From the NCBI GenBank assembly GCA_032691205.1, contig GCA_032691205.1_4541.1: a DNA stretch of 64,000 bases; one strand, 5' to 3'. Below, one piece after another: positions 55,064 through 62,453 of the stretch. Source of the stretch: a phage. The translations under genes and the position numbers were made by a program. The number at the start of each line of letters is the position of its first letter. Position 1 is the first letter of the stretch. Below the pieces are notes generated by a model. That model did not search any database, was not told where the DNA came from, and saw only the letters and a program-made list of their open reading frames with translations.

Positions 55064-55617
55064 ACACAGGTGTGATTGCCGAAGCCATCCAGAGTTATGG
55101 ACGCTTTGCTGAAATGTTAGATGTTCCTTATTTAGTGGATGCAGATATTTTGGCATTCACACTGCCACCTGGCAAAGAAGATGCTCCTTTGGGGCATCCT
55201 AATGGGAAGTTTTATGTTGCCAGTGCCGAGCAATCATTCTTGCAAATGGAAAAGGATGGCTACGAGTTTATCGCTGGTCATCCCTACATGGCCCTGACAC
55301 CATGTTACCGCACAGAGGAAGTGTTGGATGATTCTCACTTCAACATCTTCTTGAAGCTGGAGTTGATTGAGTTCTATCCCAGCTTTGGTGAAGTGAAAGA
55401 GTATGCCGAAGAAATGCGATACTTCTTCTGGACCTACTACAAAGTCCAAACAAGAATTGTAGAAACAGAAATAGGGCTTGACGTGGAAGACATGAATGGT
55501 TTAGAATTAGGGTCATTCGGAACAAGATTGTCCCCACAAGGTCATCCATATATTTATGCAACAGCCATAGCCGAACCTCGTGCATCTATGGCAATTAACA
55601 GGAGGAATCATGATTAA
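55060..55617 (+). CDS. hypothetical protein (185 aa)
   Basis: ORF track. Confidence 0.55.
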   Translation: MNTGVIAEAIQSYGRFAEMLDVPYLVDADILAFTLPPGKEDAPLGHPNGKFYVASAEQSFLQMEKDGYEFIAGHPYMALTPCYRTEEVLDDSHFNIFLKLELIEFYPSFGEVKEYAEEMRYFFWTYYKVQTRIVETEIGLDVEDMNGLELGSFGTRLSPQGHPYIYATAIAEPRASMAINRRNHD

Positions 55618-56995
55618 TAAATTTGCCCGTAAACAGGAAGTTGCTGAAGCAGCACGTCGCGCTGGTGTGTATGACAAATTGTGTGAAGGTATTGTGAAGG
55701 TGTATGGCTGGGAGGGAGAAGATGATCCAACCTGTTCAGGTGATTTTGCAATGAACGATATGACCTTCCCATATATTTCCTACAATGCCTCCACTGGTGA
55801 AATAAACGGTGTAACCAGCACCAGTGTTGATCGTTATCCAGACGCAGAACAAACCACAGGAGGTTACATGTTAGATCTGATTCTTAAGAAATCAGGGTTA
55901 TTGGGAATCGAAGACGTTTTCGTAGATGCAGATAGTTTATCATTAGGAGATGTTGTTAAACTACTGGTAGACTTTAGATTTGCAACAGGTAAAAGCTTCT
56001 GGAAGCCAGAAGATGCTGAACGTTTGAAGACAATCGATCCAAGTATGTATGAACTGCCACAATATAAAGATAAACAATTCCGCAAGGTTATCTTCTTTGA
56101 TCGTCAAGCAGGCTTAGATGCAATGCATATTGAAGTTGGGGATTTACCACGCCCACACTCTGCTGCTACTGGTGATCGCGGCCTTGTAGAAGTCACGGCT
56201 CAAGAATTTAAAAATATGTTTGCTGCGAAATACGATGAAGCTGCGCCTGTGCCAAGTATTGAAGAGCAAGAGGAAGAACAGTTTGTAGCGGAAGATACTG
56301 CATTTGAATATCTGCCGAACACAGGTGTTATGCCTTCAGAAGATTTCGTGCAGGTTCGCTTCAACAATGGTCAAACAGATGTTGCTAAGGGAACAGTATT
56401 CACTTGGAATATCGACAATCTGGAAGAGTGGGCGATTAAAGAATACTTCATTCTCCCGCGCACGGCAAAATACAACTATAATAATGGTGGACACCGCCCT
56501 TGTGGTGGTCACGTAGAAGTTCTCTTTCGTGACGGAACTACGGATAGTGGATCGGCTACGCATTTCACTTGGGGTCATGTTGGATATGATCGGGATATTG
56601 TTGGTTGGCTTCCAACTAACAACCCTAAACCACGTTACCGTAAGCCTCGTAAGAAGCCTCCGGTAGGTAAGAAGAGTGTCGTTCGTGTCCTCTACACTAC
56701 GCAACAGACCTACACATTTAAAAATGTGGTAGACGTGCAAGTAACCGAGGAGCGAGTTTATATCCAATATGATCGTGAAGTTACAGAGGGTATCAAAGAA
56801 TCGGTTACTACCGAAATTGAAAATAAGCTTGTTATGGCAATCATTGTGGAAGAAAGTAAAGTAGAGAACGGTAAAGCCTATACTGTTCGTGATAGCTTCT
56901 TGCGTAATATCGATGGAACCTGGGATTACAATGGACACGATGGGACCGCTGTGAAGAACGGTAAGATCATGGGAAGACAATTCCTCTCCAAATGA
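55610..56995 (+). CDS. hypothetical protein (461 aa)
   Basis: Track ORF trimmed to ATG 55610 after AGGAGGAA. Confidence 0.6.
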   Translation: MINKFARKQEVAEAARRAGVYDKLCEGIVKVYGWEGEDDPTCSGDFAMNDMTFPYISYNASTGEINGVTSTSVDRYPDAEQTTGGYMLDLILKKSGLLGIEDVFVDADSLSLGDVVKLLVDFRFATGKSFWKPEDAERLKTIDPSMYELPQYKDKQFRKVIFFDRQAGLDAMHIEVGDLPRPHSAATGDRGLVEVTAQEFKNMFAAKYDEAAPVPSIEEQEEEQFVAEDTAFEYLPNTGVMPSEDFVQVRFNNGQTDVAKGTVFTWNIDNLEEWAIKEYFILPRTAKYNYNNGGHRPCGGHVEVLFRDGTTDSGSATHFTWGHVGYDRDIVGWLPTNNPKPRYRKPRKKPPVGKKSVVRVLYTTQQTYTFKNVVDVQVTEERVYIQYDREVTEGIKESVTTEIENKLVMAIIVEESKVENGKAYTVRDSFLRNIDGTWDYNGHDGTAVKNGKIMGRQFLSK

Positions 56996-57004
56996 TAAAA
57001 CTTA

Positions 57005-57028
57005 AAGGCGCACTTTGCGCCTTTTTTG
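57005..57028 (+). terminator. rho-independent terminator
   Basis: aaggcgcactttgcgcctt hairpin followed by T6. Confidence 0.7.
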
Positions 57029-57098
57029 ATTTCCCTCAAAGCTTTTTTCGGTTGAAAGAGGTAGAATAATAGTTCTACTCACAAAATAAGGATTAATA

Positions 57099-57971
57099 AT
57101 GAAAGATTTGTACCAAGATGTTTTTTCTTTTTTAGATCGCACTTCAGAAACATACACTAGAGAGAATGCAAACAAACCTTCCCACCTTGTTAACACGCAC
57201 AGGGATCTCTTGGCGGGGATTTTAAGCAAACATATGGCAATGACACAGATACTGCCAAAAAACTTGTCAGAGTGGCATACAGAAGGTTTTGGACATATTC
57301 ACGACTTGGATTATCTGCTCTCTCCTCTTACAAACTGTTGTCTTGTTAATTATCAAGATATGTTAGAGAATGGTTTTAAGATCGGTGCTGCACAGATAGA
57401 AAAACCAAAATCTATTGGAGTAGCTACTACAGTGCTAACTCAAATCATCCAAGCTGTTGCCTCCAGTCAGTATGGAGGTCAGACGTGTGCTCACATTGAT
57501 AAAGGTCTTAGTCCTTATGTTGAAGCCAGTTTCCTTAAAAACATGGAGATAACCAAACGTCGCTACGGTTGTTATGCAAGGAAAGAAGCCCTAGAAATGA
57601 CCGAACAAGATGTATATGACGCTATGCAAACTCTCTTGTATCAGGTTAACACTTTAATGAGTGTTAATGGACAATCTCCTTTTATTACAATCAGTATGGG
57701 TCTGGATACCTCTGTTTTTGGCAGAATGATCACAGCTAACTATCTTAAAGTGCATAGTAACGGTCTAGGCAAAGATCATGTAACGCCTGTATTCCCTAAA
57801 GTTATTTTCTTTTTACAAGAAGGTGTTAACATGAAACCTAGTGATCCTAACTACGACCTTAAGCAACAAGCTTTGGCATGTTGTGCTGATCGTATTTATC
57901 CAGATTTTATTTCTGTTCCTTTGAACAAAGAAGTTACGGGATCAGCAGATGGTACCGTTACGAGTATGGGT
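57099..57971 (+). CDS. nrdD: anaerobic ribonucleoside-triphosphate reductase, exon 1
   Basis: NrdD-like N-terminal translation; exon ends at ...VTSMG (codon ggt ending in T) before the in-frame stop. Confidence 0.8.
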
Positions 57972-58740
57972 AAACTATAACTGCTCATGTAAAATCTGCC
58001 TAAACGGGGGAACTCTCAACGAGACAATCCCGTGCTAAACGTAACAGAACTCCCAACACAGAAGAAGGGGGTACTGATATGAGAAAACAAATTCGTGATT
58101 TTGAAGGGTATGAAATTGACGAGCTTGGAAATGTTTATTGTACCAGGTATAAGGATGAAAGAATCCTTCGCTCGTGGGAAGAAATAAACACAGGATACCA
58201 ACTTGTCAGAATACGTAAAAACAAGAAAACTGTTTGCTTTCGGGTGCACAGACTTGTAGCTGAAGCGTTTTTACCCAATCCAGACAATTTACCTTATGTG
58301 AAGCATAAAGGTGACAATAGGAAAGACAACAGTGTATACAATCTTGAGTGGGGATCTTGTCCAGACAACACGCAAGAGGGTTACGATAATAACTGTTATG
58401 CTTTCTATACAAGGTGTCACAGTGTAAAAGCTACTCATAAGGCTACTGGTGAAGTTTTTTACTTTAAAAGTCTGAGATGTTGTGCTGACGCTTTAGGGTT
58501 GGACAGAAAAAGAATATCTGCAATCTTAAAGCGAGGAGCACCAAATAATTATGATTATGAGTTCTGTTACGAAATGCCTAACGACTAGCTGTGATGAATG
58601 TAGCAGCGTAGGGTGTAAGCCTATGACACCCCAAATGGTAGACATGCTTTAAGCATGAAGATATAGTCTGATCTGCATGGTGACATGCAGCAGCACGTAA
58701 TGGTGCGGGAGCGGCCTTGCGAGCCACTTTGAACATAATG
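57972..58740 (+). mobile_element. group I intron in nrdD (boundaries inferred)
   Basis: Splits the conserved ...TSMG/CRSFL... junction; ends in G; contains an HNH endonuclease ORF. Confidence 0.6.
58079..58588 (+). CDS. intron-encoded HNH homing endonuclease
   Basis: YEIDELGNVY (NUMOD4-like) and HRLVAEAF..VKHKGDNRKDN..NLEW (HNH_3-like). Confidence 0.8.
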   Translation: MRKQIRDFEGYEIDELGNVYCTRYKDERILRSWEEINTGYQLVRIRKNKKTVCFRVHRLVAEAFLPNPDNLPYVKHKGDNRKDNSVYNLEWGSCPDNTQEGYDNNCYAFYTRCHSVKATHKATGEVFYFKSLRCCADALGLDRKRISAILKRGAPNNYDYEFCYEMPND

Positions 58741-59682
58741 TGTAGAAGTTTCTTGTCGTACTATGCCACCGAACAAGGAGAAAAATATGATGGACGATTC
58801 AACCTTGGAGTAGTTTCTATCAACTTGCCTCTGATTGCTGCGGAAGCGAGAAGTAAAGGAGAATCTTTCACCGATCTTCTTAATAAACATATGGAGATAG
58901 CCTACGATGCTCACATGTTACGTGTAAACCGTATCAGACATACCAAAGCATCGGAAAACCCTATTCTTTTCATGGAAGGGGCTTTAGCGCGTTTAAATGC
59001 CAACGATGAAATTGGTGCTTTGTTTGAAGGTGGTTATGCTTCTATTAGTATTGGTTATGTAGGTCTTGCCGAAGCTTTGGAAATCCTTTATCCAGAGGAA
59101 AAAGATAAAAAGGAACTAGGTAAAAACATTCTGCAACATATGAAAGATGTGTGTGCTGTGTTTAAAGAACGATCTAAGTTGGCATTTAGTCTTTATGGAA
59201 CTCCAGCAGAATCCTTGTGCTATAAATTTGCAACAGCTTTAAATGAAAAATATCCAGGTCTGGTAGAAAGAGACTATCTTACTAATTCTTTTCATCAACC
59301 TGTAGGGTTGGTAACAAATCCTTTTGAAAAATGGGATTATGAAGCAGGTTTTGCACAGATTAGCAATGGTGGTAACATAAGTTATGTCGAAACACCAAAC
59401 TTAAAGAATAACTTAGAAGCTTTGGAGACTTTAGTAGACTACGCTTATGAACATATTCACTATTTTGGTATTAATCAGCCCGTGGATCAATGCTTTAAGT
59501 GTGGTTTTCATGGAGAATTTAAGGCAACGGCTAAAGGGTTTGAGTGTCCTGATTGTGGCAACCATGAAGAAGAAACTATTTCTGTAGTTAGACGTGTATC
59601 AGGGTATCTTTCTGCCCCTAATTCACGGCCTTATAACAAAGGTAAAATGCAGGAAGTTTTGCAAAGGGAGAAACATCTTTGA
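58741..59682 (+). CDS. nrdD: anaerobic ribonucleoside-triphosphate reductase, exon 2
   Basis: C-terminal Cys cluster CFKCGFHG..CPDCG and glycyl-radical motif RVSGYL. Confidence 0.8.
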   Translation, partial: CRSFLSYYATEQGEKYDGRFNLGVVSINLPLIAAEARSKGESFTDLLNKHMEIAYDAHMLRVNRIRHTKASENPILFMEGALARLNANDEIGALFEGGYASISIGYVGLAEALEILYPEEKDKKELGKNILQHMKDVCAVFKERSKLAFSLYGTPAESLCYKFATALNEKYPGLVERDYLTNSFHQPVGLVTNPFEKWDYEAGFAQISNGGNISYVETPNLKNNLEALETLVDYAYEHIHYFGINQPVDQCFKCGFHGEFKATAKGFECPDCGNHEEETISVVRRVSGYLSAPNSRPYNKGKMQEVLQREKHL

Positions 59683-60149
59683 ATTTTGCAGGATATGAAC
59701 CTGTAGATCTTATTAATGGTGAGGGAGTTAGGTGCTCCCTCTGGGTTAGTGGTTGTAGCCACGGTTGTCGTGGCTGTTTTAACCAGAAAGCCTGGTCTTA
59801 TTCTTATGGGAAACCGTTCACTAACGAAAATGTAGAGCAAGTTTTAAAAGATTTGTCAAGACCATTTGTAAAAGGTTTAACAATTTTAGGAGGAGAACCA
59901 TTAGATCCGCAGAATATTTACAATGTTAAAAACCTTATAGAAAAGGTTAGAGACGTTTATGGGTCAAGCAAAGATATAATGGTGTATACAGGATATACTT
60001 TTGAGGAAGTGCCTTTGTATATTAAAAATCTTGTTGACATTATTGTAGACGGAAAGTATGAAATAAACAATCCAACCACAAAACCTTTCAGAGGGTCAGA
60101 TAATCAAAGATTATGGACCAAAACGGCAAGTGGTTGGCAATCAGATTAA
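59679..60149 (+). CDS. nrdG: anaerobic RNR activating protein (radical SAM)
   Basis: CSLWVSGCSHGCRGC motif; immediately downstream of nrdD. Confidence 0.8.
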   Translation: MNFAGYEPVDLINGEGVRCSLWVSGCSHGCRGCFNQKAWSYSYGKPFTNENVEQVLKDLSRPFVKGLTILGGEPLDPQNIYNVKNLIEKVRDVYGSSKDIMVYTGYTFEEVPLYIKNLVDIIVDGKYEINNPTTKPFRGSDNQRLWTKTASGWQSD

Positions 60150-60976: not shown

Positions 60977-61633
60977 ATGACAATAAAACATATTTCTTTT
61001 GATGTATGGAATACTCTTATTTCTGCCAATCAAAACTATGCAGATGCACGTACGCACACTATTGCTACATATGGTAGAATGTCTGAACGTGCGGCAAAAG
61101 AAGCATATAAAGATGCCAAAGAAATTATGGATAATGCTGCACTAAATGGGTGTGCAGAAGGTGTAGCATATGCATGGAATATGTTGGGAAGAAAGATAGG
61201 TTTAACCCCTGTAGAATCTGCACAAATGCGTTTTGAGTGTGAGCAATGGTTTCTTAAATTTCCTCCACATATCGCTTTAGATTTGCCAGTTTGTTTGCTA
61301 TACTTGTCTGGTAAATATGATCTTAGTATTAAAAGCAATACTAATTTTATATCTGGGGATATTTTGCGTCGTGCTTGTATGTTCGACAGTTGGAATTGTT
61401 TTGAATTTATGCATTTTTCAGACGAACATCTGTTATGTAAACCAGATCCTAGATTCTTTGTTAGGACCGCCACATATTCAAGCATTCCTTTGAAGGCTGA
61501 AGAGATTTTACATGTTGGGGACAGCGAAGAATTTGATGGTAAATGTGTTGACATAGGGATTAACTTCTGTCATATTAAGAACCCTAACGATTTACTAGAG
61601 AAACTTAAAAGAGGAGAAATTGTAAATGCGTAA
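60977..61633 (+). CDS. HAD-like hydrolase with non-canonical motif I
   Basis: FDVWNTL (second Asp replaced by Trp), KPDP, GDS. Confidence 0.55.
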   Translation: MTIKHISFDVWNTLISANQNYADARTHTIATYGRMSERAAKEAYKDAKEIMDNAALNGCAEGVAYAWNMLGRKIGLTPVESAQMRFECEQWFLKFPPHIALDLPVCLLYLSGKYDLSIKSNTNFISGDILRRACMFDSWNCFEFMHFSDEHLLCKPDPRFFVRTATYSSIPLKAEEILHVGDSEEFDGKCVDIGINFCHIKNPNDLLEKLKRGEIVNA

Positions 61634-62453
61634 TCAAACTCAAATTTTTGCAAATAAATTTGATGACCTGGAAACTGCTACTTTTGATATCAAAGACTAT
61701 TCAAAATTGAAATTTGGTTGTAACCAAGCTGCGCGTCGTATGGGTAAAGAATTGGCACTTCAGTTTTTTGCTCAAGTGGCAATGAAACATATTGGGGAAC
61801 AATTTGTTATCATCCCTTCTCCTTATAACCATGTGCACAATGCTGCAACAATGATGACAGATCATTTTATTAATTACTTTAATATGTTGCAAGCACAATA
61901 TGATCAAGGTCGTTCAGCAGAACTGGATATTATTCATCGTAAAGTTAGCTATATCAACGATTATGGTTTCTTGGATAAAGCTAGTCGTAAGAAACTTATT
62001 GATGGGGATACATTCTACTGCAACAAAGAATTCTGGGGTGATAAGAAGCTTGTGTTCATTGATGATGTAAATATCACCGGAACTCATGAAGACAAACTGA
62101 TTGAGATTCTTGATGAAAATCAAGTTAAAAATGATGTTTACTTCTTGTATTTTGCAAAATATGAAGGTAATCAAGCAGATACTGAAGCTAAACTGAATTT
62201 TAACTACATCAATACACCAGAAGCGTTTGTTAAAATGATTAATGAAGAACGTGATGCACAGTGTCTTGTTCGTCCTATTAAGTATCTTATGGGCCAAAAT
62301 CACGAAGACTTCAAAATCATTCTTAGCCAATTGCCACACTACTATGTAGAGCAACTTTTCTTCGGATGTTTGGGAGAAGGTTACAACCGAATTTCAAAGT
62401 ATGCTGAAAACTTTGAATTCTTGGATCGTTACACAAAACAACACATTCTGTAA
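61626..62453 (+). CDS. type I phosphoribosyltransferase-fold protein (putative)
   Basis: KKLVFIDDVNITGTHEDKL resembles the PRPP-binding loop. Confidence 0.55.
   Translation: MRNQTQIFANKFDDLETATFDIKDYSKLKFGCNQAARRMGKELALQFFAQVAMKHIGEQFVIIPSPYNHVHNAATMMTDHFINYFNMLQAQYDQGRSAELDIIHRKVSYINDYGFLDKASRKKLIDGDTFYCNKEFWGDKKLVFIDDVNITGTHEDKLIEILDENQVKNDVYFLYFAKYEGNQADTEAKLNFNYINTPEAFVKMINEERDAQCLVRPIKYLMGQNHEDFKIILSQLPHYYVEQLFFGCLGEGYNRISKYAENFEFLDRYTKQHIL

Follow-up and report, generated by a model that had tools for sequence, protein, structure and literature searches.

Why does the nrdD reading frame of this phage stop in mid-gene and resume further downstream? An earlier note, made from the DNA letters alone, had proposed a group I intron carrying an HNH endonuclease. 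We examined this proposal in the window, that is, the whole stretch of 64,000 nucleotides that was analysed; all features described below lie on its plus strand. The first nrdD ORF (57099-57980) terminates as ...VTSMGKL-stop, just as the note had described, and the second spans 58717-59682. The Pfam NRDD profile (562 positions) is divided between them, with positions 1-263 in the first ORF and 263-562 in the second. The locus was aligned with the uninterrupted allele of ESCO13, a 99.6%-identical sister phage. The intact ESCO13 NrdD reads ...TSMG-CRSFL... straight across, confirming that the frame resuming at CRSFL is contiguous with the first in an intact gene. The alignment splits nrdD between 57971 and 57972 and between 58740 and 58741. 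The insert is exactly 57972-58740, 769 nt, and its flanks are 99.6-99.7% identical to the ESCO13 nrdD. The KL and stop at the end of the first ORF represent read-through into the intron, and the true end of exon 1 is therefore GGT (57971). Exon 1 (57099..57971) comprises codons 1-291, ends in ...Thr-Ser-Met-Gly, and keeps 99.7% identity to ESCO13 up to base 57971. Exon 2 (58741..59682) comprises codons 292-604 and the stop codon, and contains NRDD profile positions 263-562 with the glycine-radical domain. The 5' exon ends in T (base 57971) and the insert in G (base 58740), as the note had it.

The insertion lies between codons Gly291 and Cys292. Joining 57971 to 58741 yields an in-frame NrdD of 604 aa that is colinear with the NrdD proteins of ESCO13 and T4. 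The comparison with T4 NrdD, which the note had proposed as a check, runs colinearly across the exon junction and sets Cys292, the first residue of exon 2, against Cys290 of T4 NrdD (1H78). In the T4 protein, 288-MGCR-291 lies at the finger loop's tip (PMC4493059). According to this alignment, the insertion is directly 5' of the codon for the predicted catalytic (thiyl-radical) cysteine, in keeping with the rule that elements of this kind target a gene's most constrained DNA. The intron-less site of the ESCO13 type is written ACGAGTATGGGT followed by TGTCGTTCCTTT, and the site sequence is also given as ACGAGTATGGGTTGTCGTTCCTTTTTGTCG. The predicted ligated junction of the window nrdD reads ...AGTATGGGT joined to TGTAGAAGT..., with ..GGTTGTAGAAGTTTC.. 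as the spliced-type site. The activase gene nrdG (59679..60149; Pfam Fer4_12, E=3e-42, and Radical_SAM) overlaps the nrdD stop codon, and its place next to nrdD indicates an intact operon.

Does the insert have the structure of a group I intron? With the Rfam group I model, the whole window gave no match at the gathering threshold (50 bits). In E-value mode, RF00028 scored 39.3 bits over P7-P9 only (58583-58690; E=2e-8 locally and 1.7e-6 window-wide). Relatives whose core is uninterrupted by an ORF scored 70.6 (phi92), 79.8 (18-1-2), and 105.3 bits (T4 nrdD) against the same threshold. In phi92, the same intron occurs naturally in ORF-less form, with a core 99% identical to that of the window. 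The window copy falls below the threshold because an ORF (about 490 nt) in P6a splits the core. The Rfam check suggested by the earlier note gave a partial match in the window and passing scores in the ORF-less copies. We rejected the low score as evidence against an intron, considering it an artefact of the ORF in the core. Since no match reached the curated threshold, confirmation was drawn from comparative structure analysis.

The structure model covers eight homologues and contains 75 pairs, with 94.5% of the pair cells paired. When partners were slid by 1-3 columns, only 32-44% were paired. Compensatory changes were found at 35 of the 75 pairs. The slid controls had 5-9 such pairs and the shuffles 18.3±2.7, and none of 500 shuffles reached the observed number. 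They are distributed over P3 (4), P4 (2), P5 (2), P6 (1), P6a (7), P7 (1), and P8 (4), among other helices. The P3/P7 pseudoknot was counted with separate brackets; nested-only notation gave 25-30% pairing for P3 and P7, low values that result from the pseudoknot. P3, P4, P6, P6a, P7, P8, and P9 are each 100% paired in the 8 homologues.

The predicted intron (57972..58740, 769 nt), absent from ESCO13, begins with AAACUAUAA, which creates the in-frame stop (..GKL-stop) in unspliced RNA. The 5' strand of P1 is ATGGGT (57966-57971), the final six bases of exon 1, and pairs with the internal guide sequence GCUCAU (P1 3' strand, 57983..57988; 100% paired in 8/8 sequences). The splice-site wobble U57971·G57983 is an invariant U·G in all eight. 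The intron strand of P10, CUAUA (57975..57979), pairs with UGUAG of exon 2 (58741-58745) and is the weakest element of the model (81-88% paired). The 5' half of the core (57995..58035) contains the 5' strand of P3 (57995-58000), P4 (58004-58008 and 58029-58033), the P5 hairpin (58014-58017/58021-58024), and the 5' strand of P6 (58034-58035); P3, P4, and P6 are 100% and P5 94% paired, with compensatory changes in each. The 5' strand of P6a, GUAACAG (58041..58047), is fully paired with CUGUUAC at 58564-58570, with compensatory changes at 7/7 pairs, and the loop between them contains the HNH ORF. In the 3' half of the core (58564..58690), where all helices are 97-100% paired, the 3' strands of P6a and P6 (58576-58577) and the 5' strand of P7 (GACUA, 58583-58587) are followed by P7.1 (58588-58592/58603-58607; 97.5% paired, 4 covarying pairs) and P7.2 (58611-58616/58626-58631; 97.7% paired, 3 covarying pairs). 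Both of these IA-specific extra helices between P7 and P3' are present. The 3' strand of P3 (58637-58642), P8 (58643-58647/58653-58657), J8/7 with the 3' strand of P7 (AAGAUAUAGUC, 58658-58668), and P9 (58673-58679/58684-58690) complete the core. The 3' peripheral elements (58693..58740) include P9.1 (58693-58696/58703-58706) and P9.2 (58708-58715/58723-58730), which are 73-80% paired with compensatory changes; P9.2 has a window-specific C58712·A mismatch. The 3' tail, GAACAUAAUG, ends at G58740, the omega-G. The P1 U·G, the pseudoknot core, the omega-G, and the in-frame joining are all present in the model. Together with the covariation of a complete IA2 structure, they support the group I intron reading of the earlier note.

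The same data bear on an explanation that does without splicing, in which NrdD residues 1-293 and a C-terminal piece starting at TTG58717 or AUG58738 would assemble. Aeh1 NrdA, split by mobE, is an example of such a gene with two assembling polypeptides. Annotation pipelines call two CDSs in nieznany, VEcB, and others, the intron ends with an AUG that is in frame with exon 2, and there are documented HNH insertions of phages that do not splice (PMC7344957). However, the terminal AUG is not conserved (the introns of Vibrio 1.084.O and T4 end in UUG, that of Meda in AAG), and it lacks a Shine-Dalgarno sequence upstream. The ribozyme core, moreover, is kept by compensatory substitutions across Vibrio phages, Felixounavirus, and the T4-like JSE, and such maintenance of a complete core across distant lineages makes no sense without splicing. 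We consider the unspliced two-piece gene hardly credible and return to the spliced intron.

The ORF in the P6a loop (58079..58588) encodes an I-HmuI-like, intron-encoded HNH homing endonuclease of 169 aa. Its residues 3-166 align with residues 4-172 of I-HmuI (PDB 1U3E), that is, over the full length (E=8e-9), and it matches PHROG 59 'HNH endonuclease' (E=2e-34), in agreement with the claim of a full-length HNH type. The same note had called the ORF free-standing. The ORF does lie in the intervening DNA, but being encoded within an intron loop it is not free-standing in the technical sense. An intein was also considered and rejected: the ORF has no in-frame fusion with exon 1 or exon 2, the stop falls two codons past the junction, and the sequence on either side of the ORF is non-coding. 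The final 25 nt of the ORF double as the 3' strands of P6a and P6 and the 5' strand of P7, and its UAG stop lies inside and adjoining P7. Upstream of the ORF, a hairpin (ACUCCC...GGGGGU, 58049..58072; fold -11.9 kcal/mol, z=-3.0) encloses the Shine-Dalgarno-like AAGGGGG, 7 nt 5' of the AUG. A13b has the same hairpin with changed pairs (ACUCCU/AGGAGU), and the ORF-less phi92 intron retains it. From this predicted fold, we infer that the hairpin is probably a translational brake on the endonuclease. A sigma-70 promoter scan found no enrichment (8 found vs 8.4 expected), and therefore no promoter is claimed for the ORF. No further copies of the HNH gene or the intron were found within the window.

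Is the endonuclease still at work? The intron could splice while its endonuclease is no longer active, in which case it would no longer move and would be passed on only by vertical descent or ordinary recombination. Lys75 of the ORF occupies the position of Asp74 in I-HmuI, a metal ligand. The Pfam HNH_3 score is 22.0 vs a cut-off of 24.8 (E=1e-4), and that of I-HmuI_NUMOD-like is 25.4 vs 27.0 (E=1e-5); both are significant by E-value yet below gathering. ORF-less derivatives are common in Justusliebigvirus, indicating that the ORF decays in that lineage. The roles of the I-HmuI catalytic residues were reportedly described by Shen et al. in 2004. H76, N88, and N97 of the ORF align with H75, N87, and N96 of I-HmuI and are invariant in six aligned homologues. 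The residue at the Asp74 position is K, R, or C in relatives. Lys or Arg stands there in 5/6 of the diverged homologues aligned (the VEcB ORF is identical to that of the window), which makes it a family trait and not a lesion. Compared with an 85%-identical Vequintavirus copy, the ORF shows a dN/dS of 0.037 over 169 codons at a dS of about 1.26. The ORF is intact and under strong purifying selection, which speaks against an inactive enzyme.

The distribution of the intron among related phages provides further evidence on this point. Most Phapecoctavirus records are without the intron; apart from the window, the intron-bearing minority consists of nieznany, nepoznato, DIJ07P2, and 536P1. Many Justusliebigvirus copies are ORF-less and measure 279-290 nt. 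Between Phapecoctavirus and Justusliebigvirus the intron is 99.5% identical, whereas the exons are 70-84% identical and thus differ by 16-30%. The window exons are 100% identical to those of the intron-less ESCO13 at -100 to 0 and +12 to +100, and at +4 to +12 each of their six differences agrees with the allele of Justusliebigvirus. The first 12 nt of exon 2 (from 58741), TGTAGAAGTTTC, thus appear to be a donor-type tract travelling with the intron; in nieznany the donor-type tract is longer, reaching at least +33. This population signature supports a recent horizontal transfer of the intron with a short co-conversion tract. Taken together, the near-identical intron, the diverged exons, and the 12-nt donor tract argue for a very recent, endonuclease-driven transfer, and we regard loss of endonuclease activity as improbable.

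The tract itself has a wider occurrence. In IMG/VR, 17 nrdD genes from other phages that are uninterrupted contain exactly ATGGGT followed directly by TGTAGAAGTTTC, so the tract alone is no proof of co-conversion or target immunity. Vibrio F88 and Meda have the intron without the full 12-nt tract. The 17 uninterrupted carriers and these two phages weaken the idea that only intron alleles have the tract, as an adaptation for immunity or P10, and for the window only the reading as a probable co-conversion tract was retained.

Did the intron and the HNH gene move as one unit? It is conceivable, though we think it rather unlikely, that the two are separate mobile units and that the HNH gene invaded P6a of a resident ORF-less ribozyme of the T4 type. 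The HNH gene with its flanks, and not the whole intron, may then be what moves today. The last codons of the ORF (..EMPND-stop) are encoded by core sequence (GAAAUGCCUAACGACUAG), which is also present in the P6a/P7 regions of the ORF-less T4 and 18-1-2 ribozymes without an upstream ORF, as if an incoming ORF had read through into the ribozyme. The homologous ribozyme of T4 has another enzyme (GIY-YIG) elsewhere, between P9.1 and P9.2. However, all 769 nt, core and ORF alike, are 99.5% identical between the window and Justusliebigvirus, indicating that the last transfer moved both together. The phi92 intron keeps the ORF-upstream hairpin, so it derives from a deletion and is not ancestral. Separate origins would be an evolutionary refinement and no true alternative for the present element.

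Collectively, region 57972-58740 is very probably a mobile group I intron of subgroup IA2 in the nrdD gene of a Phapecoctavirus (phAPEC8-like) coliphage. In the pre-mRNA, exon AUGGGU and guide GCUCAU would form P1, and a free guanosine bound in P7 would attack after U57971. P10 (CUAUA/UGUAG) and the terminal G58740 would then position the 3' splice site. Exon ligation would produce GGU-UGU and restore the finger-loop MGCR with its catalytic cysteine. In unspliced RNA, translation would end three codons into the intron. The 169-aa I-HmuI-like enzyme would be translated from the intron, its ribosome-binding site partly hidden in the hairpin. During mixed infection, it may nick or cut intron-less nrdD near the insertion site, and recombinational repair from an intron-bearing genome would copy the intron and, with it, a short part of the 3' exon.

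Automatic annotation renders this locus as two 'NrdD' fragments and a 'hypothetical protein'. Recognizing the intron restores a single 604-aa enzyme of an essential pathway, and the exact splice coordinates can be transferred to dozens of genomes of therapeutic-candidate coliphages. Four stages of the homing-endonuclease life cycle are visible: intron-less alleles, a recent invasion that brought a co-conversion tract of 12 nt, deletions between short repeats that removed the ORF, and compact ORF-less introns. One report (PMC11620839) indicates that intron endonucleases can serve as weapons between co-infecting phages. Such competition is relevant for cocktails that mix phAPEC8-like, phi92-like, and rV5-like phages. 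The window intron is genuine, but as a selfish element it is of an ordinary kind, and current understanding is unchanged because this kind of element is textbook.

Judged by their sequences, near-identical copies of the putative intron are present in other published coliphage genomes. Introns at the same nrdD site, between MG and CR, occur in five phage lineages, namely Stephanstirmvirinae, Vequintavirinae, Ounavirinae, the T4-like Krischvirus, and unclassified marine Vibrio phages. The carriers are phi92 and other Justusliebigvirus, Vequintavirus, Avunavirus, Krischvirus JSE, Felixounavirus Meda, Vibrio 1.084.O, and F88. These introns share the insertion point, have cores 70-99.6% identical to that of the window, and carry homologous HNH ORFs in P6a that end in ..EM(P/S)ND-stop. 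The GenBank records of phi92 and Meda already annotate a joined (spliced) nrdD CDS. In the searchable literature, we found for this intron in Phapecoctavirus, phi92, rV5, or JSE database annotations only, and no paper describing the intron family, the MG-CR site, or the link to T4; nor did it show splicing or DNA cleavage for any intron at this site.

A close counterpart is the T4 nrdD (sunY) intron, which resides in the same host gene and belongs to the same ribozyme lineage. The two are about 80% identical in core pieces (BLAST) and 68% over the whole aligned core, with identical guide (GCUCAU), P9 hairpin, and J8/7-P7 segment. Both are IA2 with P7.1 and P7.2, and both 5' exons end in AUGRGU. 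The T4 intron is 1033 nt long and follows ..AYE-Y, which places it about 110 codons upstream of the window site, while T4 nrdD is uninterrupted between MG and CR. Its ORF, as opposed to the HNH gene in the P6a loop of the window, is the GIY-YIG I-TevII between P9.1 and P9.2. The remark in the earlier note that T4 itself has an nrdD intron therefore holds, with the addition that gene site, endonuclease, and loop all differ.

These similarities raise a broader possibility, which we offer only tentatively: the T4-type nrdD ribozyme may have colonised two nrdD positions via one unchanged guide, with endonuclease capture and spread through five lineages. At the T4 site, GCUCAU would pair with AUGAGU, and GIY-YIG (P9.1/P9.2) would have been gained; at the catalytic-cysteine site, it would pair with AUGGGU, and HNH (P6a) would have been gained. 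If true, nature would have preserved here a record of an intron that transposed, through reverse splicing or illegitimate homing, before endonucleases were captured. The spread over at least five lineages would also contradict the view of 2010 that the introns of T-even phages had stayed within cluster boundaries (PMC2993671).

With respect to the endonuclease, I-HmuI (the HNH nicking endonuclease of the SPO1 DNA polymerase intron) and its relatives I-BasI, I-TwoI, and I-PfoP3I share with the window ORF their length and domain order, consisting of an N-terminal beta domain, HNH, and a C-terminal NUMOD-like helix-turn-helix. All are encoded in phage introns of the IA2 type. I-HmuI differs from the window ORF in its target gene, in the low identity (E=8e-9), and in the replacement of Asp74 by Lys. 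Two reports (PMC1865063, PMC2988022) describe I-TevIII of RB3 nrdB, an HNH endonuclease likewise placed in P6a of a T-even ribonucleotide-reductase intron. In contrast to the window element, I-TevIII belongs to nrdB and not nrdD and, according to PMC1865063, is a dimer with zinc fingers that makes double-strand cuts.

Across 57000-59800, identity of the window to Escherichia phage nieznany, an intron-bearing relative, is 99.1%; for other Phapecoctavirus (phAPEC8-like) genomes it is 98-99%. Most Phapecoctavirus records match in two pieces covering 72% of the query, indicating that approximately 770 nt are absent from them. Direct alignment with ESCO13, an intron-less sister phage, showed that the additional 769 nt run exactly from 57972 to 58740, between flanks of 99.6-99.7% identity. 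The nrdD gene is read as two ORFs, 57099-57980 (Pfam NRDD profile positions 1-263) and 58717-59682 (NRDD positions 263-562 and the glycine-radical domain), and nrdG follows at 59679-60149. Removal of 57972-58740 yields a 604-aa protein with no internal stops, which is colinear with T4 NrdD from end to end (PDB 1H78, E=6e-168), and the ESCO13 protein runs uninterrupted across the junction (GTVTSMG/CRSFLSYY). An earlier note had proposed an nrdD interruption with precisely these limits, and the ESCO13 alignment and joined frame confirm it. The stop it saw after KL is real, but this KL end is read-through into the intron. The bases it expected at the splice sites are present, T at 57971 and G at 58740. 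The insertion point, MG/CR, lies between the codons of Gly291 and Cys292 and is among the most constrained stretches of nrdD; exon 2 opens with the codon of Cys292, whose counterpart in the T4 NrdD alignment is Cys290.

Immediately before nrdD comes a 471-aa ORF (55580-56995, + strand), with a terminator-like hairpin (57004-57024) after it. The homologue of this ORF is labelled "class III ribonucleotide reductase" in the ESCO13 record and hypothetical in nieznany, and the ORF matched no Pfam family. Downstream of the nrdDG module, a 275-aa ORF (61626-62453, + strand) encodes a ComF-like phosphoribosyltransferase (PF15610, E=9e-42).

The earlier note read the insert as a group I intron and suggested an Rfam check, which gave a divided answer. 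No match was obtained at the curated threshold. In E-value mode, RF00028 scored 39.3 bits (threshold 50; E=2e-8 in a 900-nt scan, 1.7e-6 over the whole window), confined to 58583-58690, which is the P7-P9 segment and contains the hallmark AAGAUAUAGUC. Natural ORF-less alleles pass the threshold, with 70.6 bits for the Justusliebigvirus phi92 and 79.8 bits for the Avunavirus 18-1-2, as does the T4 nrdD intron (105.3 bits). Since the phi92 core is 99% identical to that of the window, the low score is attributable to the 490-nt ORF interrupting P6a. With only this partial Rfam match, the structure was built by comparison. Eight cores were aligned with the ORF-containing loop trimmed, and a subgroup-IA2 model was drawn comprising P1, P3, P4, P5, P6, P6a, P7, P7.1, P7.2, P8, P9, P9.1, P9.2, and P10. 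P3 and P7 cross in all group I introns and were written as a pseudoknot in pair counting. Standard pairs occupy 94.5% of 586 pair cells, compared with 32-44% when partners were slid by 1-3 columns. Both-sided changes occur in 35 of 75 pairs, compared with 5-9 in the slid controls and 18.3±2.7 in shuffles (0/500 reached the observed value). Covarying pairs include 7/7 in P6a, 4/5 in P8, 4/6 in P3, and 4/5 in P7.1, and in P7 one exchange, from U-A to C-G, was seen in 18-1-2. In P1, exon AUGGGU is matched by GCUCAU (57983-57988), and all eight sequences have the splice-site U·G. The comparative structure and the scores of the ORF-less alleles support the group I assignment. Relative to VEcB (a Justusliebigvirus) and nieznany, a window-specific U to C change at 58712 leaves the peripheral helix P9.2 with a C·A mismatch.

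The P6a loop carries an ORF of 169 aa (58079-58588), correctly described earlier as a full-length HNH type: it aligns over its whole length with the HNH endonuclease I-HmuI (PDB 1U3E, E=8e-9). It also matches PHROG 59 "HNH endonuclease" (2e-34), and the Pfam HNH_3 and I-HmuI_NUMOD-like matches are significant, slightly below their gathering scores. Residues H76, N88, and N97 align with H75, N87, and N96 of I-HmuI and are invariant in the homologues of VEcB, A13b (a Vequintavirus-type copy), JSE, and two Vibrio phages. In place of I-HmuI D74, all members of this subfamily have K, R, or C. Comparison with the Vequintavirus-type copy gave dS 1.26 and dN 0.046 (dN/dS 0.037), indicating that the HNH gene is maintained by selection. 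The final 25 nt of the ORF (CUGUUACGAAAUGCCUAACGACUAG) double as the 3' strands of P6a and P6 and the 5' strand of P7. This overlap explains why all homologues end in EM(P/S)ND-stop and why exactly that tail is kept in the ORF-less phi92 intron. The Shine-Dalgarno-like AAGGGGG upstream of the ORF lies within a hairpin (58049-58072; -11.9 kcal/mol, z=-3.0), which A13b forms too, with altered pairs. Since phi92 retains this hairpin without the ORF, its ORF-less form arose by deletion, between two CUG repeats. A window-specific change at 58066, relative to VEcB and nieznany, shortens the G-run of this hairpin by one base.

In a BLAST search with the insert, Justusliebigvirus (99.2-99.5%) and Vequintavirus (~85%) gave full-length copies, and those of phi92-like phages (279-290 nt) and Avunavirus (252 nt) have no ORF; the T4 nrdD intron also emerged as a homologue. 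The same codon boundary is occupied in four further phages: T4-like JSE, Vibrio phages 1.084.O and F88, and Felixounavirus Meda. In JSE (Krischvirus), the homologue is 760 nt long with an HNH ORF (locus L007, 1501-2260). The nrdD of 18-1-2 shows an apparent second interruption, ~260 nt long, farther downstream, near codon 450 (locus L008, 1932-2196); its record annotates three NrdD CDS fragments, and RF00028 gave no match to this interruption at E<=0.001. About 12 "UNVERIFIED Campylobacter phage" records, including MG065677 ("Campylobacter phage A13b"), carry coliphage-type nrdD introns and are classified as Vequintavirus or appear phi92-like, and their host labels look doubtful. An insertion splitting the large terminase gene of Aeromonas phage 4L372XY (locus L011, 1424-1806) matches the 3' half of the core at 68%, which points to a related IA2 intron in another gene.

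Between the window and VEcB, the intron shows 99.5% identity, whereas every exon bin shows only 70-84%. Compared with ESCO13, the window exons are 100% identical over positions -100 to 0 and +12 to +100 relative to the junction. Near the junction, the two differ solely by six substitutions from +4 to +12 (TGT AGA AGT TTC versus TGT CGT TCC TTT), all synonymous and all matching the Justusliebigvirus allele; the serine change TCC to AGT is unreachable through single synonymous steps. This pattern looks like homing in which co-conversion extended only a very short way, on the 3' side. In nieznany, with the same intron, the donor-type tract extends to at least +33, so either two separate events occurred or one event was resolved differently in the two phages. 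The 18-mer ATGGGT-TGTAGAAGTTTC is uninterrupted in 17 other phage nrdD genes from IMG/VR (loci L012-L028; divergent phages of the PCMGCRSFLTP type). The tract is therefore a natural allele rather than created by the intron, and we do not claim that it confers immunity. Either these 17 sites are ready-made P1/P10-compatible targets, or an intron was once present and has been lost precisely.

In the RefSeq entry for phi92, a "spliced variant" nrdD CDS spans the ORF-less copy, and the Meda record has a joined nrdD CDS; other records, including those of the nearest relatives of the window, show NrdD as two fragments alongside a hypothetical protein. In the literature searched, we found no paper describing the intron, its site, or its kinship with T4. 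The rV5 paper treats terminase introns only, and a survey of split phage RNR genes covers other phages. A 2010 review (PMC2993671) counts only three endonuclease-bearing introns in T4-related phages, with no movement between clusters, and for JSE lists the gene 43 intron only, without mention of the nrdD intron.

Both the observation and the interpretation of the earlier note are correct: the element is a well-formed group I intron of subgroup IA2, apparently mobile and carrying an HNH gene of the I-HmuI type, for which splicing and cleavage are predicted. This kind of element is thoroughly known, and public genomes already contain near-identical copies. T4 indeed has its own nrdD intron, 1033 nt in length, the closest T4 match to that of the window (~80% identity over core pieces by BLAST, 68% over the whole aligned core). 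The two share the guide GCUCAU, the P9 hairpin, and the J8/7-P7 segment. However, the T4 intron lies after AYE-Y, ~110 codons upstream, and its ORF, between P9.1 and P9.2, encodes the GIY-YIG enzyme I-TevII; at MG/CR, T4 is uninterrupted, though ATGGGT is present. The 5' exon hexamers AUGAGU (T4) and AUGGGU (window) both pair with the same guide, and these sequences are compatible with one ribozyme having transposed between the T4 site and MG/CR. The modest added interest lies in a clean co-conversion footprint and in a two-site, two-endonuclease history common with the T4 intron.
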